From assembly GCF_030013595.1 (NCBI RefSeq), contig NZ_CP122768.1: a stretch of 64,000 nucleotides of DNA, one strand, 5' to 3'. Shown one piece after another: positions 2,730 through 55,087 of the stretch; positions within the stretch are counted from its first letter, which is position 1, and each line of letters starts with the position of its first letter. The notes beneath the pieces are model-generated. The model had not been told where the DNA came from. It ran no database searches and saw nothing but the letters and a program-made list of their open reading frames with translations. The translations under genes and the position numbers were made by a program. Source of the DNA: Escherichia coli (GTDB lineage Bacteria; Pseudomonadota; Gammaproteobacteria; Enterobacterales; Enterobacteriaceae).

Positions 2730-4106
2730 TTAGCTGCACATTTCCAGCACCGAATCGAAAATCTCGGCCCCGGCGGAAATGACTTTCAGATTGGCTTCAT
2801 AAATTTGTTGATAGGTGATCAGGTTAACCGCCTCTTCGTCCATGCTGACGCCGCTGACGCTGCTCTGCTGGTTTTGCGCTGCGGAATAGACATTGGACGC
2901 GGCATCGACTTCCGTCTGGTTTTGCTGGCTGTAAATGCCGATATTGCTGATGATTGACGAGCACGCCTGCCCGACCGTCACGCTGCCGAGGTTGGCTATC
3001 TCCAGCGGTTCGGTGGAGATATTGATCAGCGCCTGTAAGTTGTCGCTGTTACCGCTTTCGTCCGGTGAACTGGAAAACGCCAGCTCATCGGCGGTGATAT
3101 CCGGGTTGACGGTCAGCGGGCCATCGGCGTTGCTGGCGTCATAAATAAACAGCGGCTCGCCGGGGTTGCCGTTGAGATCGTAGCCCTGCGCCAGTTGATT
3201 GTTGACCGCATCGGCAAACTGCGACGCCATGCTGTTGATGGTGTCGGTCAGCGGCGTCAGCACGTCGTTTTGATAATCAAACAGTGCGCCTAATGAACCT
3301 CCAGTGTCGGTGGTCATCGTCGAGGTGGTTCCGGCGAAGGTCAGCGACATGGTCGGCGTGCCGTCGGCGTTGGTTTCCAGCGCGATGGTCGAGCTTTGCT
3401 GCCCGCTCACCAGCGGTTGACCGTTTTTCAGGGTAACGTTGTAGTTGCCCTGGTCGTCGATATTGACCTGCACATCCATCATCCCGCTGAGTTCTTCCAC
3501 CATCTGGTCGCGGGCGTCGTACAGCGCGGAGGCGTTATCGCCGTTGGCTTCGGCCTGAGCGATTTGCTGGTTATAGCTGGCGATGCCGCTGGTGAGCGTG
3601 TTGATTTGCGACACCATCGCCTGCTGCTGGCTGATGATTTCCGTGCTTTGCGAGTCGATGTAATCCAGCGTGTTGTCGATACGCAGCGACAGCGCCCCGG
3701 CTTCGCTGATCACCTGTTCGCGCAGGGCGGAATCGTCAGGGCTGGTGGTCGCTTCGTTAAGGGCGGCGAAGAAGTTATCGAACCCGCCGCTCAGGCTGCT
3801 GTTATCGTCGCTCAGTACCGCTTCCAGTTGCGTGAGATACCCCTGCTGGGTGCTGTAATAGCCGTAATCGCTGGCGGCATACCACACCTGATTCACCTGA
3901 TACTGGTTAGAGACGCGGCGAATGCTGTCGACCTGCACGCCGTTACCGGCGCTGTTCGGCGAACCACCGCTGGCACCGATGGTGCTGATTTCTGCCACCT
4001 GACGGGTGTAGCCCGTAGTCATGGCGTTGGCGGTGTTTTGCGCCGTGACGTTCAGCTCCACCTGCGCGGTTGATGCGCCGCTGTAGCCGATGTTAATCAT
4101 GTCCAT
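2730..4106 (-). CDS. lfgK: Flagellar hook-associated protein 1 (FlgK)
   Basis: 458 aa; N-terminal MINIGYSGASTAQVELNVTAQNTANA and C-terminal flagellar rod/hook family helices. Confidence 0.9.
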   Translation of the reverse strand: MDMINIGYSGASTAQVELNVTAQNTANAMTTGYTRQVAEISTIGASGGSPNSAGNGVQVDSIRRVSNQYQVNQVWYAASDYGYYSTQQGYLTQLEAVLSDDNSSLSGGFDNFFAALNEATTSPDDSALREQVISEAGALSLRIDNTLDYIDSQSTEIISQQQAMVSQINTLTSGIASYNQQIAQAEANGDNASALYDARDQMVEELSGMMDVQVNIDDQGNYNVTLKNGQPLVSGQQSSTIALETNADGTPTMSLTFAGTTSTMTTDTGGSLGALFDYQNDVLTPLTDTINSMASQFADAVNNQLAQGYDLNGNPGEPLFIYDASNADGPLTVNPDITADELAFSSSPDESGNSDNLQALINISTEPLEIANLGSVTVGQACSSIISNIGIYSQQNQTEVDAASNVYSAAQNQQSSVSGVSMDEEAVNLITYQQIYEANLKVISAGAEIFDSVLEMCS

Positions 4107-5726: not shown

Positions 5727-6391
5727 TAGATCGGGAACAGAGGATGGTTAAACAGCCGCGTCAGCCAGCCTGCGGCGTTGGCGTCGCTTAACGCGCCGCG
5801 TCCGGCATAGGAAATGCGGGCGTCGGCGATCCGCTGGGAGGAAACAGAGTTGTCGTTCTGGATATCGTCGGCGCGTACCAGGCCGCTCAAGCGGATGTAC
5901 TCATCGCCCTGGTTGAGGGTCAGCCATTTTTCGCCGCGAATTTCCAGGATGCCGTTGGGCTGCACCGCATGGACGGAAACGGTGATCTCCCCGCGCAGGC
6001 TGTTCTGCTGCTGGGAAGTGGCGCTGCCGTCAAAGTCGCGGTTGGCATCGATGGAGCCGGAAAGCTTATCTTTGGTGTGACCAAAAATGGTCGGTGCGCC
6101 GATGTCGACGGTGTTGTTTTTACCGAAGTTGGTTTTCGCCTGTTTGCTCGACTGGGTGGATTCTTCGAGGATCACCGTCAGGATATCGCCCACGCGGTAA
6201 GCCCGCCTGTCGGCGGTGAGCGACCAGTTGTAGCCAGTTTCAAACACGCCCCCGGCACGCCCGTCTGCCGGAGGCGGCGCTTCGGTTTTCGGTGGCGCAA
6301 AGTATGCGTCGTCTTTTTTGACCAGAATGGCCTGCGATTCACACCCGCTAAGCAGGGGAAGCAGCGCCACCAGCCAGAAATAATTTTTCAC
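5726..6391 (-). CDS. lfgH: Flagellar L-ring lipoprotein FlgH
   Basis: 221 aa; lipoprotein signal LLPLLSGC; FlgH family. Confidence 0.9.
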
Positions 6392-12026: not shown

Positions 12027-13451
12027 ATGTCTGAATTTGAATTGCTCGTGAAAGATCTTCTTTTAAAATCAGAAGAAGACGAGAAAAAGCGACAAGAAAA
12101 AGATCGAGAATTAATTTCAAAGGTTCTTGAAATCTATGATCAAAAATATGTTGCAGAACTCCTACGAAAAGTAGGAAAAAATGAATGGAGCAGAGAAACA
12201 CTTAACCGTTGGATAAATGGTAAGTGTAACCCTAAACAATTAACTTCTGCTGAGGAAACTTTACTTCGAAAGATGCTTCCAGAACCTCCCGAACATCATC
12301 CTAACTATACATTTCGTTTTATTGATTTATTCGCAGGGATTGGTGGTATTCGTAAAGGCTTCGAAAATATTGGTGGGCAGTGTGTTTTTACTAGCGAATG
12401 GAATAAAGAAGCGGTAAGAACCTACAAAGCTAATTGGTTTAATGATGAACTAAATCATAAATTTAATCTTGATATACGAGAAGTCACTTTAAGTGATAGA
12501 GATGATGTTTCCGAAATGGAAGCCTATAATCATATAGACAAAAATATTCCAGATCATGATGTCCTTCTGGCCGGTTTTCCATGTCAGCCCTTTAGTCTGG
12601 CTGGGGTAAGCAAGAAAAATTCTCTGGGGCGTGCACATGGTTTTGAATGTGAGGCACAAGGAACACTATTTTTTGATGTCGCTCGAATTATTAAATCAAA
12701 AAAACCAGCTATTTTTGTGCTTGAGAATGTGAAGAACCTTAAAAGTCATGATAAAGGTAAGACTTTTAAAGTCATCATGGAAACACTCAATGAATTAGGG
12801 TATGAAGTCGCCGATGCTGGTGTGACTGGCTCAGATGATCCTAAAATTATAGATGGAAAACATTTTTTACCCCAACATCGTGAGCGTATAGTGTTGGTAG
12901 GATTTCGTAGGGATCTAAATATTCACAAGGATTTCACGTTACGAAATATTAACCGCTTTTACCCTCAAAACAGGCCAACATTTGGTGAATTATTAGATCA
13001 TGATGTTGACGACAAATATATTTTGACTCCAAGGTTATGGGAATATCTTTACAATTATGCAAAAAAACATGCAGCAAAAGGAAATGGATTTGGTTTTGGT
13101 TTAGTGGATCCTAAAAATCCAGATAGTATCGCACGAACGCTGTCTGCTCGTTACCATAAAGATGGCTCTGAAATACTGATCGATCGTGGCTGGGATAAGG
13201 CTGTCGGTGAAATCGATTTTAGTAATCCAGCGAATCAAGAGAATCGACCAAGAAGACTGACACCTCATGAATGTGCCAGGTTAATGGGTTTTGAAAAACC
13301 AGGGGGAAGACCTTTTAGAATACCTGTATCAGATACTCAAGCTTATAGACAATTTGGGAACTCAGTTGTTGTGCCAGTATTTGAAGCTGTAGCAAGATTA
13401 CTAGAACCGTACATACAAAAGGCTGTCAGCATGCAAGTTATTAACGATTAA
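12027..13451 (+). CDS. DNA (cytosine-5)-methyltransferase, Dcm / M.EcoRII-like
   Basis: 474 aa; C5-MTase motifs [40 protein letters not shown]; close to E. coli Dcm along its length; AT-rich codon usage unlike its neighbours. Confidence 0.9.
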
Positions 13452-13475
13452 TAATAATTAACTTTCACTATTGTG

Positions 13476-13497
13476 AGGCCTTTTTTATTAAAGGCCT
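13476..13497. terminator. Hairpin between the convergent methyltransferase and restriction enzyme genes
   Basis: aggccttt-tttatt-aaaggcct: 8 bp perfect stem in an AT-rich context. Confidence 0.5.
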
Positions 13498-13538
13498 CTA
13501 AATATATAATCATAAGTTATTATAAGTATACTTTTATA

Positions 13539-14744
13539 TTATATAAAATCTTCATACAGCGTTATTAACTGTGTGATAAAACCCTCTAACGTTAATAATC
13601 CATCCCTGATTTCCTCCGGATATTTTTTATGAAGAGGGGAAGGTACAACCAAGGTGACACCTTCAGCTCTCATTTCGTTAAATTGAGCAACTGAGACACC
13701 CTCTTGTAAGGTAAACAAATATATTTTGTTGATTTTATTTGCTTCATTGAGTGCCTGACGCCACCGATCCTTACATGTTGTTTTTACAGCAAGCATACGG
13801 AGTTTTTCTCTTGGAAAGTGATCATCATGGTAAGCTGCCGCTGATGGAAAAAGAAAATCGGGTTTCTTTTTTCCTTCAGTAATACATTGAGTAGCAAAAT
13901 GATGCAGTCCATGCTCAATAAAAATTTGCTCAAGATGTAGCTCCAGTGATTTCCCGGCTCGAGATTTTCTTCGATTACTAACAGAGTTAGCCATAGCTAT
14001 AAAATCATCTACAGAACCAAACCCTTGACGGATGATGTCCAGTACGTGAATTTCTTCAACCATTAGAAAGAGATCATATTCAATACGGCGGCGTTCTAAA
14101 AGTTGGTCATCTGGACTGGTTACGCCTGTTGGGTAATAACCCGCAGCATATTGAATAATCTCTAAGCCAGAAGGAAAGCTATGTTTCCAGCTTTCCGGAA
14201 TAACATATTCCTTTTGAGAGATTTTTGGCCTTGATGCGAGTACACCAAGTATTTCACTGGCAGGCCCAAACATTAAAGTTCCAGGAATGATCTCCCCAAT
14301 AGCTGATTCCAGTACATCCTCTTCTTCTGGGCTAACACAAACCCATACATCAACACTTTTGCTGTCTCTCCCTGGCTCATGTTCAAACGCAAGCACAGAC
14401 AAAGCACCTGTATTTTCCGGATCCTGTAGGGGACTGCCAGCCCCCCACCGAGTGATGCGTTTTTCATTTCTTGTTTGCCCGAAATACTTATTATTGTAGT
14501 AAATAGCGCGAACCTCACTGTCTACACATTCATGAGAGGAATAAGTTGCGCGCAATAAAACCGAAGGATTTTTTTCTGACGTATGATCTATAGATGGGAA
14601 AAGTTCAGCGACGATACCAGAAGGGATATATACCCCCACTTGATGCCCTCCTGTTGCACCAGTGTCGTTTGCTGAAAGACGTTTAATATAGAGATAGTTG
14701 TTACCACCGACCTTATCAAGCAGCCAATCTTGTAATCCTGACAT
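13539..14744 (-). CDS. Type II restriction endonuclease, EcoRII family (expected target CCWGG)
   Basis: 401 aa; N-terminal YIKRLSANDTGATGGHQVGVYIPS and the remainder match my recollection of EcoRII; convergent with the Dcm-like gene as in EcoRII systems; AAGGA ribosome-binding site upstream. Confidence 0.8.
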   Translation of the reverse strand: MSGLQDWLLDKVGGNNYLYIKRLSANDTGATGGHQVGVYIPSGIVAELFPSIDHTSEKNPSVLLRATYSSHECVDSEVRAIYYNNKYFGQTRNEKRITRWGAGSPLQDPENTGALSVLAFEHEPGRDSKSVDVWVCVSPEEEDVLESAIGEIIPGTLMFGPASEILGVLASRPKISQKEYVIPESWKHSFPSGLEIIQYAAGYYPTGVTSPDDQLLERRRIEYDLFLMVEEIHVLDIIRQGFGSVDDFIAMANSVSNRRKSRAGKSLELHLEQIFIEHGLHHFATQCITEGKKKPDFLFPSAAAYHDDHFPREKLRMLAVKTTCKDRWRQALNEANKINKIYLFTLQEGVSVAQFNEMRAEGVTLVVPSPLHKKYPEEIRDGLLTLEGFITQLITLYEDFI

Positions 14745-40426: not shown

Positions 40427-40539
40427 GTGGGTGTTGTGTTTAGGGCCGGGGAGAGTCGGGGTATGACTACGAAAGCCCCTAACTTAAACACGATATTACG
40501 CCAGAAGTCACCATTTCCAAAACACAACGCCGTTGTACC

Positions 40540-40773
40540 GTGGGATATCTGCCCAACAGCAGCGACACGCCGGTGATCAAAATCAGCGCCAAATGGCTGA
40601 GAGAAGCGGGATTTGAGATCGGCACGGGCGTTACCGTGAAGATCCCGGAAGGTTGCCTGATCCTGCTTGCGGATAACAACGGAGTACAGGAACTGAGGAA
40701 GGAACTTTATAAGGTTAAACAGGCTGTTAAGGGGATGCGTGACGGGATGTTTAGTGTGCTGAACGAAAGTTAA
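40540..40773 (+). CDS. SymE-family toxin homologue (AbrB-fold), N-terminus ambiguous
   Basis: PVIKISAKWLREAGFEIGTGVTVKIPEGCLILLA resembles the SymE core; homology continues upstream in frame to a stop at 40480; an ATG at 40463 is in a different frame. Confidence 0.5.
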   Translation: MGYLPNSSDTPVIKISAKWLREAGFEIGTGVTVKIPEGCLILLADNNGVQELRKELYKVKQAVKGMRDGMFSVLNES

Positions 40774-40780
40774 ATAATAA

Positions 40781-40816
40781 AAAAGCCGGGAAGATTTAAT
40801 TTTCCTCCCGGCTTTT
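40781..40816. terminator. Rho-independent terminator between convergent genes
   Basis: gccgggaag-atttaatttt-cctcccggc followed by ttttatttt. Confidence 0.7.
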
Positions 40817-40819
40817 ATT

Positions 40820-41068
40820 TTAGCTTAAAAGTATTTTTTCGATATATTCACTAACCTTTGAATTAACTCCTGATATATATTCATTATCTTTACCAGAGTA
40901 AAATTTTAAAGAACCTTCCAAATTATCATGAAGAACAAGAAGATCATAAGCAAGTAATTTTGGGATAAGCGAAGCACTTTGATAATCAGTCATTACTTTA
41001 TCAAGTGACATATATAGCCTATCAATTATGTTTGTATCTAAATCATCCGCTAATCTAATCATTTCCAC
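40820..41068 (-). CDS. Hypothetical small protein (82 aa, AT-rich)
   Basis: ORF with distinct AT-rich codon usage, bounded by the terminator and the IS end; no recognisable domain. Confidence 0.4.
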   Translation of the reverse strand: MEMIRLADDLDTNIIDRLYMSLDKVMTDYQSASLIPKLLAYDLLVLHDNLEGSLKFYSGKDNEYISGVNSKVSEYIEKILLS

Positions 41069-41107
41069 TACATCAATGTAAGCGACTCGTCAGAACCGTA
41101 TTGATAT

Positions 41108-42679
41108 TTACTGAGAGCTCAGATCAACTTTCCAGGGCAACAGATCGCGTACCCGGTTTGCCGGCCAGTCCTGGATATGTTCAATGACGTAACGCAGCCA
41201 CTTTTCTGGCTCCACATTGTTCAGACGGCATGTGCCGATCAGCGAGTACAACACCGCCGCATGTTCACCACCGCTGTCGGAACCCGCGAACATCCAGTTT
41301 TTCCGGCCTACGGCCACTCCCCGTAAGGCGTTCTCTGCGATGTTGTTGTCGATTTCCACCCAGCCATTACTGCAGTACACGTTCAGTGCATCCCACTGTT
41401 TCAGCAGGTATGCGAACGCTTTTGCCGTATCTGAGTGACGCGACAGTGTTTTCATCTGTTGCTGTATCCAGTCATACAGTGACTGCATCAGTGGCGCGGC
41501 TCTGGCTTTTCTTGCCGCCAGACGCTGTTCTGCTGAACAGCCCCGGACCTCTGCCTCGATGGCATACAGTTCACCGATACGCTGCAGGGCTTCCGTGGTG
41601 ATGTAGGTGGGCGCTCTTGCATGCACATCGTGGATTTTTCTCCGGGCATGAGCCATACACGCGGCTTCCGTTATTCTGCCGGATTCGTATAACGCCCGGT
41701 AACCACCGTAAGCATCGGCCTGAAGCACACCGCTGTAACCGGCCAGGTGATTTTGTGGATGGATACCTTTCCGGTCCGGACTGTACGCGAACCAGACCGC
41801 CGGGGGCATCTGTGAACCGGCGTTACGGTCATCACGGACGTAGACCCACAGCCGGGCTGTCCGGGTTTTACCGCTGCCCGGCTCCTGGACCGGGACGGGG
41901 ATATCATCAGCATGGACTTTACCGGGCATCAGCACATACTGGCGCAGGACGTCATACAGCGGCTCCAGCAGTTCAGCAACAGCACCTGTCCAGCGCCCCA
42001 GTGTGGCACGGCTCAGCTCCACTCCCTGACGACGGTATATTTCTGACTGGCGGTATAACGGCAGATGGTCTGCATATTTCCCGGTGACAACATGGGCCAG
42101 AAGCCCCGCTCCGGCATAACTGCGTGCAATGGGTTTTGAAGGTACTGGTGCCTGTACGATATGGTCGCACCGGCAACAGGCCTGTTTCGGACGTTGTGTT
42201 TCGATAACCTTAAAGGCGCTGCTGATAAGCTCCAGTTGCTCTGACACATCACATCCCAGAGAACTGAGTTCACCACCACAGGCAGGACAGCATTCCTCTT
42301 CCGGCCGGATAACCCGGGTTTCACGGGGAAGTGAGGCCGGTAACGGTTTACGGGCTGAAGACTGGCGCAGGGCGGATGGCAGTACCGGGTCATATTGCTC
42401 ACCCAGCGTTTCCGCCATTTCTTCCTGAAGTGCGCTGATTCGCTCCTGTGCTTCCTGTATCTGCCGTTCGGTTTTTGCACGAAGTTTTTCTGAGCTTTTA
42501 CCGAACTGCATACGTTGCAGTTTCGCAACCAGCGCCTTCAGCCGGTTGATTTCGGAAGCATAAGCCGCCACCCGCTGTGAGAGCAGGCGGTTGTATTCAG
42601 CCATCTGGCGGATGGTGTCCTGTTGCGTCTGCAACAGTGCCCGCAGGCGGGCGTTCTCATGAGCAAGTGAGGTGTCCAT
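41108..42679 (-). CDS. IS66-family transposase TnpC
   Basis: 523 aa; N-terminal coiled coil, Cys-rich zinc-finger region, DDE-type catalytic core. Confidence 0.9.
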
Positions 42680-42698
42680 ATCCTCACTTTACAACGGG

Positions 42699-43046
42699 TT
42701 ATATGCGGATTCCAGCGCGTTCCGTTCGTTTCGGGTGCTTCCAGTTGATACCTTCAAGAAGCATGGATAACTGAGCCGGAGTAAGGTGCACCTTGCCGTC
42801 ACGGGTGACTGGCCAGACGAAGCGGCCCCGCTCCAGGCGTTTGGTGAAGAGGCACAGTCCGTCACTGTCAGCCCACAACACTTTTATCTGGTCACCCCGG
42901 CGTCCGCGGAAGATGAACAGGTGTCCGGAGAACGGGTCATCCTTCAGGACGTTCTGAACTTTTGATGCCAGGCCGTTAAAGCCATTTCGCATATCGGTGA
43001 TACCTGCAACCAGCCAGATACGCGAACCTGCAGGGAGAGATATCAT
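42699..43046 (-). CDS. IS66-family accessory protein TnpB
   Basis: 115 aa; overlaps the tnpA stop. Confidence 0.85.
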   Translation of the reverse strand: MISLPAGSRIWLVAGITDMRNGFNGLASKVQNVLKDDPFSGHLFIFRGRRGDQIKVLWADSDGLCLFTKRLERGRFVWPVTRDGKVHLTPAQLSMLLEGINWKHPKRTERAGIRI

Positions 43047-43720
43047 CAGTGGCTGCTCCCTTTTATTTCGCGGATAAGTGTCTGTAATAACGCCGGCGTC
43101 AGTTTACCTTTAAGCCTGAGAGTTCCGGCCGGCAGAACCAGCTCACAACACAGACTGTCGGACGGTGTATTTATCTGCTCTGGTTCCTGTGCGGGGGCCG
43201 GGATTTTATTATCCGGCTCCGGCGTTAACGTCACGGGAAGCAGTGCCGGCATATTTTTTCCGGAAGGCAGCAGGCCACCTTTCCGGTATTGATGGCGCCA
43301 GTTGAAGAGCAGGTTATCGTTGATTCCGTTTTCCCGGGCGATCTGCGCCACACAGGCTCCGGGCTGCAGTGACTGCTCCACTAAGGCGATTTTAAACTCA
43401 TAAGGGAAGTTGGGCCGCCGGGGACGTTTTTTTACCACGGGGGCTTCGGATATAACGGTGCTTTCAGGACGTACGACTGGTACCGTGGAAAATTGTCCGT
43501 AAAGGCAGGCATCAAGTTCCTGCTCCGACATGCCTGCGGGCAAAGGCCACGAAAGGCCAGCTCTCCGAAAGCGCACGAACATACTACAAACTGTTGATTT
43601 TGGTACACCCAGGCGACGCCCGGCCACAACCCGGGGTAAATGTTCTTCAAAGTGAAGACGTAAAGCTTCAGTGATCCAGGTCCGGTGTTTCATACGATAG
43701 TGTCCATTAAAAATGGACAT
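43046..43720 (-). CDS. IS66-family accessory protein TnpA
   Basis: 224 aa; N-terminal HTH-like region; first ORF of the IS66 triplet. Confidence 0.8.
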   Translation of the reverse strand: MSIFNGHYRMKHRTWITEALRLHFEEHLPRVVAGRRLGVPKSTVCSMFVRFRRAGLSWPLPAGMSEQELDACLYGQFSTVPVVRPESTVISEAPVVKKRPRRPNFPYEFKIALVEQSLQPGACVAQIARENGINDNLLFNWRHQYRKGGLLPSGKNMPALLPVTLTPEPDNKIPAPAQEPEQINTPSDSLCCELVLPAGTLRLKGKLTPALLQTLIREIKGSSH

Positions 43721-43772
43721 TATTTTTGTAGAGCCGGAGGAAACAGACCAGACGGTTTAAATGAGCCGGTTA

Positions 43773-44237
43773 CTATTCAGCTTCATAAAGCTTTTTGAAC
43801 ATGGGGCTTTGATCCCAGGCGATCCCTTTGTAACGCTTCATATTTTTCCGCAATTCATCCTTTGAAAGATTCATAAAACGGATTTTTAATTTTTCATCGG
43901 TTTCAGTGTTGTAAACCAAATGTTCCATCCCACGCCAGGAGGACTCCAGTTTCTGAAATTCCGGATGACTCAGGATTAGTTTGATCTGCTCAGTTAATTT
44001 GAAATCGATCTGCTCAATAATCGCAGCAATACTTTTATAAGCGTCGTCACTGACGGTGACGGTATTTGTCAAAGCCTGTTGGGCCAGCGTCTGAACTGCT
44101 GCCTCAACAGCCTTTGCTGCCTGAGGTGTCTTGGGACGGAAGGCTTTATCCAGGAGCGAATCAAATTCAGTGTCCTGATAGGCAGTGGTTTGCGCAGCAG
44201 AGAGTTCGCCAGTCGCCAGAAGAGTATCGTTTACCAT
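43773..44237 (-). pseudogene. tssC: T6SS sheath large subunit TssC, 3'-truncated by the IS66 insertion
   Basis: Only about 154 N-terminal residues (ends ...SPMFKKLYEAE, which I recognise as the start of the conserved TssC core) before the IS terminal repeat creates a stop. Confidence 0.8.
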
Positions 44238-50947: not shown

Positions 50948-52830
50948 ATGGATCCACGGCTACTGGAATACTACAACCGCGAACTGAGCTATCTGCGGGA
51001 AACGGGAGCCGAATTTGCCGCCCGTCATCCTAAAGTCGCCGCCCGACTGGGTATGCAGGGAACGGATATTGCCGATCCGTATGTGGAGCGAATGGTCGAG
51101 GCCTTCAGCTTCCTGACCGCCCGCACGCAGCTAAAAATTGACGCTGAATTCCCCCGTTTCACCCAGCGTCTGCTGGAAGTGGTCAGCCCCAATTACGTCA
51201 CACCCACGCCCTCAATGAGCGTGGCGCAGCTTCATCCCAATCCGGAAGAAGGCGATCTGGCGAAGGGATTCACCGTCCCGCGCAACACGGCCTTTTTTTC
51301 CGCCATTCCGGAAGGCGAAAGTACCGCCTGCCAGTTTCGTAGCAGCCAGAATGTGACGCTGTGGCCGCTTGCCATCGAAGAGGTGCGGCTGACCGCCGCG
51401 CCGCCGGATATGCCTGCCCTGCACCGCTACCTGCCAGCCAACATTCACGTCGCTGGTGCGCTGCGTATTACCCTGCGCACCTTTGGTGAACTGACGTTCA
51501 GTCAGCTTGCAGGGCTGAACAAGCTGCCATTTTATCTCTGCGGCGAGGAGCGCACGGCCTCACACCTGTTCGAACTACTGCATACCAGCGCCATCGCGAG
51601 CCTGGCTGGCATTCCGGGGCATTTTGACGGCGCACTGGATGTGAATCTGAAACAGCCCGTTATGTACGAAGGCCTGGATCCGGATCAGGGACTGTTGCCG
51701 CTGGCGTGGAATGTGTTTCACGGCCATAACCTGCTACATGAATATTTTACCTGTCCGGAACGCTTCTTTTTTTCACCCCGACAGGCCTGTCTGCCGGGTT
51801 ACAGAAAATTAACGGCGGCGTGGCGGAGATTGTTATCCTGCTGAACCGCCTGCCGCCGGACTGGCTGATCCACCAGACAAACGCGGCACAGTTCAGCCTG
51901 TTCTGTACCCCGGTTATCAACCTGTTTCCCCGCGTCGCCGCCCGGATCGATGTCACGCACAGCACGACGGAACAGCATCTGGTGGTGGACAGAACCCATC
52001 CGCTGGATTATGAGGTGTTCTCGGTCCAGGAAGTGGAAGGGCTGGAAACTGACACCACACGGAAGATGGCCTTTCGCCCGCTCTACCACACCCGCAATAA
52101 TGATGAAGGCAATCACGGACGTTATTTTTCCCTGCGCCGGGAGCCGCGCCGGTTGTCGGAAAATGCCCGCCGCTATGGCACCCGCACCTCCTATACAGGA
52201 TCAGAAGTGTTCCTGTCGCTGGTTGACCAGTATGAAGCGCCGTACCCGGAAAATCTGCGCCATATCACCATCACGGCTATGGTCACCAACCGCGATCTGC
52301 CCTGTCTTATTGCCCGCAATGGACGGGACGATCTGACCGTGGATGCGGCCATCCCGGTGGCGGGCGTGGGGCTTATCCGTCCGCCGCGTCCGCCGCAGCC
52401 TCCGCTGGCTGAACGTGAAATGGCCTGGCGGTTGATCCGCCAGTTATCCTTTAACTATCTGCCGCTGGCCGATCTGGATCACCGTACCGGTGGTCAGGCG
52501 CTGCGCGATCTGCTTAACCTGTTTATTCCGGCGCATGACAGTCCGCAGTCGCGCCAGGTGCGCAGCCTGATTGGCTGCAACACCACCCCGGTCACCCGCC
52601 GTCTGCCCGGTTCCGGGCTGCTGGTCTATGGGCGCGGCGTCAGTTGTGAACTGACCGTGGATGAGGAGGGGTTCTCCGGTATCAGTCCGTATCTGTTCGG
52701 TCTGGTGTTGGAGCACTATATCGCCCGTCATGTTTCCATTAATACCTTCTCGCAGATGACGCTGCACAGCATGCAGCGCGGCAAAATTATGACCTGGCCT
52801 GCCAGGGCGGGACAGCGGGGAAGCGTATGA
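50948..52830 (+). pseudogene. tssF: T6SS baseplate protein TssF, frameshifted in a T7 homopolymer (51767-51773)
   Basis: Two overlapping ORFs (50948-51844 frame 2; 51820-52830 frame 1) together give a TssF-length protein; an eighth T would restore ...ERFFFFTPTGLSAGL... Confidence 0.7.
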
Positions 52831-55010: not shown

Positions 55011-55087
55011 TGGCGGAACGGACGGGACTCGAACCCGCGACCCCCTGCGTGACAGGCAGGTATTCTAACCGACTGAACTACCGCTCC
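55011..55087 (-). tRNA. aspV: tRNA-Asp (GUC)
   Basis: Reverse complement is the 77 nt E. coli tRNA-Asp, GGAGCGGTAGTTCAGTCGGTTAGAATACCTGCCTGTCACGCAGGGGGTCGCGGGTTCGAGTCCCGTCCGTTCCGCCA. Confidence 0.95.

Follow-up and report, generated by a model that had tools for sequence, protein, structure and literature searches.

The segment between yafV and an IS66-family element in the DNA analyzed here, a stretch of 64,000 nucleotides from Escherichia coli (the window), is very probably the decayed distal end of an Rhs effector array within the type VI secretion (T6SS) island located between aspV and yafV, with both the SymE-family gene and the convergent Rhs immunity gene of this array being disabled. 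The E. coli DNA of the window shows the gene order fadE-ivy-yafV. The island borders on the core gene yafV, which encodes 2-oxoglutaramate amidase (39656-40426, plus strand; present in the open reading frame (ORF) list and annotated by PGAP on the identical sequence of HCP5S3_I2), and its opposite boundary is a tRNA-Asp gene (aspV, 55011-55087, minus strand) found with ARAGORN, in agreement with the K-12 order dnaQ-aspV...yafV. In the window, the island measures only about 14.6 kb. A first-pass annotation of this DNA had placed a SymE-like frame and an AT-rich ORF between yafV and the insertion sequence (IS) and viewed both as leftovers from the far edge of the island. This view holds, as do the flanking elements, except that the IS starts at 41078 and not after 41068. 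The state of the locus reflects ordinary genome decay and not a new system, and both proteins are already present in RefSeq.

A SymE-family frame that has lost its start

The frame of the GTG at 40540 was noted previously to be open upstream up to a stop at 40480, and a TAA is indeed found at 40480-40482. Translation of 40483-40770 yields 96 codons, starting with LKHDITPEVTISKTQRRCTVGYLPN..., which match the Pfam family PF08845 (SymE_toxin) over residues 15-61 with an E-value of 2e-13 and 50.7 bits, compared to a gathering score of 29. As defined by the Pfam match, the ORF list and alignment, the remnant contains codons 3-97 and the stop codon (40483-40773, plus strand), and shares 90.5% amino acid identity with the intact 97-aa protein of D6. 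The only ATG between the yafV stop codon (40426) and 40540 is found at 40463 in a different frame, and is preceded by gagtcgggg (40453-61) and by GGAG (40450-53). No Shine-Dalgarno (SD) sequence was found in front of GTG 40540 or of the in-frame codons ATT 40495 and ATT 40513. The window copy is thus not a complete SymE ORF with a start codon and ribosome-binding site, and the earlier description of a SymE-like gene without a usable start is supported by the PF08845 match together with the absence of the SD and ATG.

The lesion was located by nucleotide alignment with SymE homologs, as had been suggested, and consists of a 33-column gap at 40479-40486 relative to three start-bearing references, i.e. 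the XJ34 copy at the yafV locus, the ybgA/rhsC-locus copy of LCP30S3_I5 and the D6 copy. The missing piece (...GCTC.CCGCAAGCAACT.A...AGGTAGTTAATCATGG) contains the leader, the SD (A/GAGGT) and the native ATG, and is absent from the window as well as from four other yafV-locus alleles. BLAST homology to the intact genes starts at 40487, which corresponds to the 8th nucleotide of the coding sequence (CDS). The gap can equally well be explained by two deletions, of 15 and 18 bp, on either side of a retained CTAACT. Hence, the SymE gene was inactivated by one or two deletions totalling 33 bp, and not by the frameshift or small insertion that had been proposed initially. A junction of the island that simply cuts the SymE gene was also considered as the cause and rejected, because comparison with the ybgA and XJ34 copies revealed homology of the yafV-side flank to the SymE leader plus the ISEc1 repeat, so that only a clean 33-bp gap remains.

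Intact 97-aa copies are present at the ybgA/rhsC locus of LCP30S3_I5 and in D6, where the gene is located next to a helix-turn-helix (HTH) gene. These copies start with MAE(H/R)(D/N)ITPEV and carry an SD (AGGT/GAGGT) 7-9 nt before the ATG, while an N-terminus of the form MAEH(D/N)ITPEVTISKTQRR is common to all full-length members from E. coli, Salmonella, Shigella, Erwinia, Citrobacter and Yersinia. The complete genomes HCP5S3_I2 and LCP30S3_I5 are identical to the window over 40380-41077, and a junction-spanning query retrieved the deletion allele at yafV from 11 of 5426 complete genomes. Two genomes contain an XJ34-type allele, which retains the SD and ATG and carries two nonsense codons; this is a separate knock-out event at the same yafV locus. 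In 18KM2445, an additional deletion has removed the 3' end of the SymE gene.

Two alternative readings of the start region need to be weighed against this deletion. In one of these, ATG 40463 would be the original start, and a frameshift or a small insertion somewhere from 40463 to 40540 would have put the gene out of frame. This ATG is indeed the only one in the interval and has the SD-like GGAG 9 nt upstream, the first-pass annotation having named gagtcgggg as its ribosome-binding site. However, the sequence in which it is embedded also occurs where SymE is absent: in about 930 genomes, window positions 40415-40478 flank yafV and are followed by an ISAs1-family (ISEc1/H-rpt) element instead of SymE, and 40456-40479 (CGGGGTATGACTACGAAAGCCCC) is a degenerate copy of the ISEc1 terminal inverted repeat CAGGGCAAGATTACGAAAGCCCGC, which is also found at the K-12 yafV flank. 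The terminus of ISEc1 was derived from three independent insertion sites and reads CAGGGCAAGATTACGAAAGCCCGCTCCCCGCAAG.... Moreover, the position of the ATG is occupied by ATT in K-12 and by AAG in XJ34 and the ybgA-locus copy, showing that it is lineage specific and not the ancestral SymE start. All full-length homologs use the ATG inside the missing 33 bp for their MAEH(D/N)ITPEV start, which already contradicts a start at 40463. The 37-codon ORF that runs from this ATG to 40576 on the plus strand is out of frame, has no homologs and no Pfam match, and is probably due to chance. An original start at 40463 is therefore hardly credible.

The other reading is that the shortened gene is functional and translated from GTG 40540, or from a non-canonical in-frame start. 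In the sequence identical to the window, PGAP calls only GTG 40540-40773 as an intact CDS, giving a 77-aa product annotated as 'SymE family type I addiction module toxin' (WP_064225733.1). Furthermore, each of the five distinct deletion-allele sequences that were examined has kept the frame open for 95 codons, dN/dS is below 1, and the remnant is probably transcribed from yafV, since no terminator precedes 40781. Against this, none of the three candidate starts has an SD, and a product starting at the GTG would be missing 20 conserved residues, among them those at the first five Pfam domain positions (the match begins at Q15). All full-length family members begin 20 residues upstream of the equivalent of this GTG. 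No intact SymE homologs starting at GTG 40540 are found; the 77-aa 'MGYLPN...' proteins in the databases are gene calls on copies that are truncated alike, and the many entries of 66-86 aa likewise stem from truncated copies. The pairwise dN/dS values among the remnant and intact copies are 0.1-0.4 for every pair and do not discriminate between the readings, because XJ34, a clear pseudogene, scores alike and gene conversion from intact paralogs is evident (dS of 0.015 between GF4-3 and D6). Four replacements (S56P, E68G, R74K and Q78K) are private to the window lineage, S56P falling in the conserved VKISEGC strand, versus about one synonymous event; this is compatible with relaxed constraint, although the changes are too few for a test. 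A functional short form is thus unlikely, and the SymE frame of the window is most likely a silent pseudogene, whose transcription, if any, would be as the 3' tail of yafV.

An AlphaFold2 model of an intact 97-aa relative, built with a 20-sequence alignment, has a mean pLDDT of 53, too low for a fold search; its predicted strand-helix-strand-strand arrangement followed by a long C-terminal helix would be compatible with an AbrB/MazE-like swapped-hairpin fold. A sequence search of the PDB with the SymE-family protein yielded no meaningful relative.

The convergent immunity gene and the loss of T6SS genes

The SymE remnant is followed by a bidirectional intrinsic terminator (40781-40816) with a 14-bp stem and T runs, which is kept in all homologous loci. 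It is common to the SymE remnant and the convergent gene, and probably also terminates read-through from yafV. On the other side of this terminator, the convergent ORF (40820-41068) encodes 82 aa from a GTG, its DNA having a GC content of 29-32% compared to 52-60% for yafV. Pfam and NCBIfam searches with the 82-aa ORF returned nothing significant, in line with the first description of this ORF as AT-rich and without a recognizable domain. Its designation as an orphan, however, no longer applies. In HCP5S3_I2, the ORF is intact with 97 aa and begins about 20 nt downstream of an orphan Rhs tip, in which NPLSYIDPLGL is followed by a 130-aa domain that matches DUF7587 at 31.8 bits. At other loci, full-length VgrG-DcrB-PAAR-Rhs genes with a DUF7587 tip are followed after 10 nt by the ORF for the identical 97-aa protein, behind which a convergent SymE-family gene is found each time. 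This position, 10 nt behind PAAR-Rhs toxins of the DUF7587 type, points to the 97-aa ORF being an Rhs immunity gene (rhsI). Judged from these relatives, the convergent ORF of the window is the IS-truncated immunity gene of an orphan DUF7587-type tip. The remnant (40820-41077, minus strand) retains 85 codons, 13-97 of the 97-aa protein WP_052318335.1, whereas the first 12 codons, the ribosome-binding site and the cognate toxin are lost.

Orphan rhs-CT/rhsI modules lie downstream of Rhs genes and are part of the C-terminal displacement model of Rhs evolution. Such orphan modules were reportedly described by Poole in 2011 and by Koskiniemi in 2014. The locus resembles these modules in having a small AT-rich ORF directly behind a DPxGL-delimited toxin tip, and in the succession of core fragments, tips and immunity genes that makes up the arrays at the yafV locus. 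The placement behind a tip bounded by PxxxxDPxGL is seen in the relatives, the toxin of the window itself being deleted, and the low G+C content typical of rhsI is present. The window differs in that only 85 immunity codons are left, while the toxin, promoter and start are gone.

The IS66-family element that cuts the immunity gene (41078-43773, minus strand; 2696 bp) is recognized from its ORFs, its ends and matching records, in which it is annotated as ISCro1 family. It contains tnpC (41108-42679, 523 aa), tnpB (42699-43046, 115 aa) and tnpA (43046-43720, 224 aa), and its ends read GTAAGCG... and ...CCGGTTAC, with terminal repeats GTAAGCGACTCG... and GTAACCGGCTCA.... The element thus has the tnpA-tnpB-tnpC set and the GTAAGCG-type terminal repeats of IS66 and resembles ISCro1-like sequences in gene order and ends, but differs from them in that no 8-bp target-site duplication was found at the window IS, which is flanked by ACATCAAT and TATTCAGC. 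Beyond the IS lies a 5' fragment of tssC (43774-44237, minus strand), encoding the large subunit of the T6SS sheath. This IS-cut fragment comprises 154 codons, of which residues 73-154 match positions 3-82 of the 301 positions of the Pfam VipB profile.

In PK-F-10122, the same IS is inserted at the same position of tssC, with the 8-bp TATTCAGC duplicated on both sides, and on its far side the 3' part of tssC, tae4/tai4, hcp, tssJ and tssK are still present. Only the right IS junction is common to the window and PK-F-10122. The lack of a target duplication in the window is explained by one of the flanks being the end-point of a deletion, and since the same IS is a simple tssC insertion in PK-F-10122, an IS-adjacent deletion has removed most of the T6SS together with the Rhs array. 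In the simplest history, the IS66-family element would first have inserted into tssC, after which a deletion that began at its left end and reached codon 13 within the immunity gene would have taken the remainder of tssC (its 3' part), additional T6SS genes, the entire Rhs array and the start of the immunity gene. The order of these two events is inferred.

SymE-family genes at the ends of Rhs arrays

At every locus examined, the SymE-family gene is arranged tail-to-tail with the last immunity gene of the array, with the conserved bidirectional terminator located in between. This layout is found in E. coli at the yafV, ybgA/rhsC and rhsE-like loci, with either an intact or a 5'-truncated SymE gene, and in five other species. 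Outside E. coli, it is seen in Citrobacter, Yersinia nurmii, an Escherichia cryptic clade and a gut Enterobacteriaceae metagenome-assembled genome. The yafV-locus relatives all carry arrays of Rhs core fragments, tips and small ORFs that end at the SymE gene, as exemplified by GF4-3, whose array contains an HNH nuclease and an SMI1/KNR4 immunity gene. Within the arrays, 5'-truncated SymE pieces are joined to the start of the next orphan Rhs core fragment at recurrent points, such as codon 23. Such internal pieces would be expected if incoming core-tip-immunity-SymE segments displace older array ends. In E. coli and related genera, the SymE-family gene at this position encodes 97-110 aa, starting with MAEHDITPEV....

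Many intact copies are part of integrase-primase-cHTH-SymE blocks, often in tandem, in E. coli, Salmonella and Erwinia. Neighborhoods with cHTH, primase-helicase and RHS genes were previously listed for SymE-family genes, with the cHTH protein being proposed as a regulator or antitoxin (Kawano et al. 2007; PMC1891008), and later papers reported SymE genes beside T6SS/Rhs genes or an orphan hcp in Erwinia and Pantoea. A literature search for an integrase/primase/Rhs element found nothing. Close relatives of the window gene are found in blocks that correspond to the cHTH-SymE operons (Kawano et al. 2007, section 13 / Fig. 7), convergent with Rhs tip and immunity genes. The window differs from these in lacking the cHTH, primase and integrase genes, the truncated SymE gene being adjoined by yafV and the ISEc1 remnant instead. 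No cHTH gene was found in the ORF list upstream of the window SymE after yafV (40426), whereas an HTH gene is present beside the D6-type, Salmonella and Erwinia relatives. From this distribution we infer that orphaned SymE copies without the cHTH gene and leader tend to be silenced, which would fit the repeated inactivation at yafV. When representative genomes were scanned for exact matches to the conserved 5' codons, these were found in five species only; Salmonella LT2 was not among the genomes retrieved. Across the loci compared, the SymE-family genes represent a regular end-marker of enterobacterial Rhs arrays.

Relation to symE/symR and a possible antisense RNA

The window gene shares PF08845 and the VGY and WL.EAGF..G..V.VK motifs with symE of K-12 (Kawano et al. 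2007; PMC1891008). As in symE/symR, the intact relatives have a conserved 5' end and a predicted antisense RNA of ~75 nt over the SD and AUG. However, the family of the window is shorter, with a C-terminal helix that ends in ...GMFSVLNES, and is found at Rhs array ends, whereas symE/symR is located in the hsd/mcr region. The window copy furthermore lacks the SD, ATG and leader. Both the window frame and an intact relative score only 37-46 bits with the NCBIfam SymE equivalog NF010128 (cut-off of 132), values of 44-46 bits being reached even by intact relatives, and a search with Rfam SymR gave no match up to an E-value of 10, either for the window or for one intact locus. No LexA box (CTG-N10-CAG) was found upstream of the window copy or of the intact relatives, the best sites matching 10-11 of the 20 nt of the consensus. 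These comparisons indicate that the Rhs-linked SymE family is not orthologous to K-12 SymE.

The 5' end of the intact genes is unusually well conserved at the nucleotide level. In six protein-ascertained homologs from four genera, residue-identical pairs use the identical codon in 93.5% of cases within codons 2-14, compared to 60% in the remaining gene, and a single codon is used in 6 of 8 invariant-residue columns within codons 2-14 versus 5 of 35 elsewhere (Fisher p=0.0017). The 45-nt SymE leader is also conserved. The antisense strand of the HTH-SymE spacer is predicted to form two hairpins of -44.2 kcal/mol, compared to -29.4 for the sense strand. In one helix of 15 bp, pairing is complete (100%) and 7 pairs show double changes, with G.U pairs where the sense strand would give A.C mismatches. 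As these predictions draw on five sequences from essentially two clades, the antisense hairpin RNA is suggestive and not proven. A candidate antisense promoter, recognized by reading the sequence, is located at 40493-40520 on the minus strand (TTGGAA 40520-40515, a 16-nt spacer and TAATAT 40498-40493) and is kept in the aligned relatives as TTGAAA/TAGAAT. It matches the consensus at 8 of 12 positions and remains below the threshold of the consensus promoter scans, in which no site reached 9/12 on either strand near the SymE gene. Transcription from this promoter, located inside codons 5-13, would start at codons 2-3 (predicted near 40486 in the window) and cover the SD and AUG. A cis-antisense RNA, if real, would account for the nucleotide-level conservation of the leader and of the first 14 codons between genera. 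The window retains only the promoter half of the predicted RNA, its body being deleted. It is possible, though we put it forward tentatively, that the Rhs-linked SymE subfamily has its own SymR-like two-hairpin cis-antisense RNA of ~75 nt, and that Rhs tips are carried by integrase-primase-cHTH-SymE elements in which the gene forms the terminal cargo.

An RNA or DNA role of the locus itself, for which it would be kept instead of for a protein, has also been considered. Such a role might be that of the yafV terminator and 3' UTR, that of a minus-strand homolog of Ssr1 or IsrA, or that of a 3' homology arm for the exchange of Rhs tips, the latter being in line with the 5'-truncated SymE pieces that mark old module ends within the arrays. 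The minus strand matches the Rfam model of Ssr1 (RF02627) at 40510-41073 with an E-value of 5.5e-72 and that of isrA (RF01385) at 40560-40643 with an E-value of 1e-4. In Shigella flexneri, Ssr1 was mapped to the interval separating an Rhs gene from yafV (PMC4782007), the same genomic position as the window locus, and IsrA was reported to lie antisense in cis to STM0294.1n and to be expressed inversely to it (PMC2330248). However, both scores remain far below gathering (248.8 versus 820 bits for Ssr1 and 31.8 versus 51 for isrA). The Ssr1 model covers the entire 654-nt 'intergenic' region that separates an Rhs gene from yafV in S. flexneri 301. Only its 3' half aligns well, and this half merely corresponds to the SymE remnant on the far side of the terminator, read in antisense. 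The mapped 5' end of Ssr1 (model position 131) is located where the alignment is poor, and the experimentally mapped part of Ssr1 is not conserved in the window. Similarly, the SymE signature WQEEAGFETGRSVTVK is encoded by the isrA consensus when read as its reverse complement. Each of the two Rfam models thus includes DNA that is antisense to an ORF of the SymE family. A homolog of Ssr1 or isrA at this locus is therefore improbable, the sub-threshold scores being explained by DNA and protein-coding homology, and no antisense promoter passes the consensus scan. Retention of the locus for such a role is quite improbable compared to decay of both genes.

For genome annotation, these results imply that the pipeline-called 77-aa 'SymE family toxin' CDS is very probably a pseudogene and that the 'hypothetical protein' facing it is a truncated Rhs immunity gene. 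The published 'sRNAs' Ssr1 and IsrA map onto loci of this kind, which should temper the Shigella-specific claim for Ssr1. As the aspV-yafV T6SS was gutted by an IS66-mediated deletion, the strain has lost a contact-dependent weapon along with its Rhs effectors. A moderately novel lead is found outside the window, in the possible antisense regulator and the mobile-element context of the Rhs-linked SymE subfamily, for which the comparison suggests a testable antisense regulator. If true, the window would represent the end state of such an element, in which a toxin gene that was parted from its cHTH gene and antisense RNA has been repeatedly knocked out, by the 33-bp deletion in the window and by the nonsense codons in XJ34.

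RNA families overlapping the SymE remnant

The SymE-family (PF08845) remnant of the window, at 40483-40773, is overlapped on the minus strand by sub-threshold matches to the models of two published small RNAs. The longer of these is to Ssr1 (RF02627, 40510-41073), a model described as that of a 'Shigella-specific' sRNA, which spans the entire Rhs-yafV intergenic region of Shigella flexneri 301. Half of the model is antisense to a SymE remnant, which is also present in E. coli. The 5' end of the Ssr1 model encodes VVDEIRIRIA, resembling VVEMIRLAD of the protein encoded by the convergent Rhs immunity gene of the window. Ssr1 may be a transcript from the remnant of an orphan immunity gene. The second match is to isrA (RF01385, 40560-40643). 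Read in reverse complement, the isrA consensus encodes WQEEAGFETGRSVTVK, the signature of the SymE family, which implies that IsrA of Salmonella lies opposite a SymE-family gene of SPI-6, as its antisense RNA.

The 5' end of SymE and its leader

The outermost 35 bp of ISEc1 (H-rpt, ISAs1 family) lie immediately before the SymE leader at both the yafV and the ybgA locus. This IS end is represented by a degenerate copy at 40456-40479 of the window, and was also read at the comparison loci L003 (5575-5640) and L009 (5979-6013) and at the yafV-yafF locus of K-12 (L008). The following ~30 bp of the ISEc1 end resemble the native SymE leader with about 69% identity, through ...AGGTAGTT...CATGGCTG. 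In the Rhs-linked SymE subfamily, synonymous sites in the leader and codons 2-14 are frozen across genera. In intact relatives this conserved region lies at 3899-4039 (L003) and 5906-6046 (L044, L041, L039 and L048); of it, the window keeps the surviving half of a candidate antisense promoter at 40493-40520 on the minus strand. Two hairpins with compensatory changes are predicted on the antisense strand of the region, making this a candidate SymR-like RNA of ~75 nt, which is not recognized by Rfam.

Deletions and other features around the insertion sequence

The IS66-family (ISCro1-like) element, which together with the adjoining tssC fragment spans 41078-44237, lacks a target duplication and is bordered by codon 13 of the Rhs immunity gene on one side and this 5' tssC fragment on the other. 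Strain PK-F-10122 carries the same IS in tssC as a simple insertion between two copies of TATTCAGC. Judged from these junctions, most of the aspV-yafV T6SS and the Rhs array are therefore gone from the window strain through an IS-adjacent deletion. At the yafV locus of strain 18KM2445 (L006, 3161-3699), the SymE remnant has lost its 3' end and runs directly into a gene for a MucR-family regulator, beyond which lie vasL, tssE, tssJ and tssG. Here the same hot spot carries a different deletion from that of the window.

Within the T6SS remnant, ARAGORN calls a 94-nt 'tRNA-His' (52613-52706), probably a false positive in coding sequence. The left half of the window (1-33000) is a Flag-2 lateral flagellar cluster with homologues of FlgK, FlgE, FliF, a FliI-type ATPase and FlhA. 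Within this cluster, a C-5 cytosine DNA methylase gene (12027-13451) and an adjoining 401-aa ORF on the opposite strand, together at 12027-14744, are possibly an inserted restriction-modification module.

SymE within Rhs arrays

Inside Rhs arrays, SymE fragments without their 5' part (L020, 9392-9618 and 11438-11598; L023/L024, 11731-11976; L035/L036, 7314-7567 and 9785-10028) are joined at recurring breakpoints, notably codon 23, to the beginning of the adjacent next orphan core fragment of Rhs, which is in antisense orientation. These fragments look like scars left as array ends were displaced in succession.

A conserved block comprising a tyrosine integrase, a ~920-990-aa primase, a Cro/cI-type HTH gene and SymE, convergent with toxin-tip and immunity genes, is present in E. 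coli, Salmonella and Erwinia pyrifoliae (L010-L019, L039-L042 and L044-L048), often as tandem units of ~8.8 kb within Rhs loci. A literature search for a mobile element of this type with Rhs tips returned nothing specific. The block may be a mobile element that carries Rhs tips.
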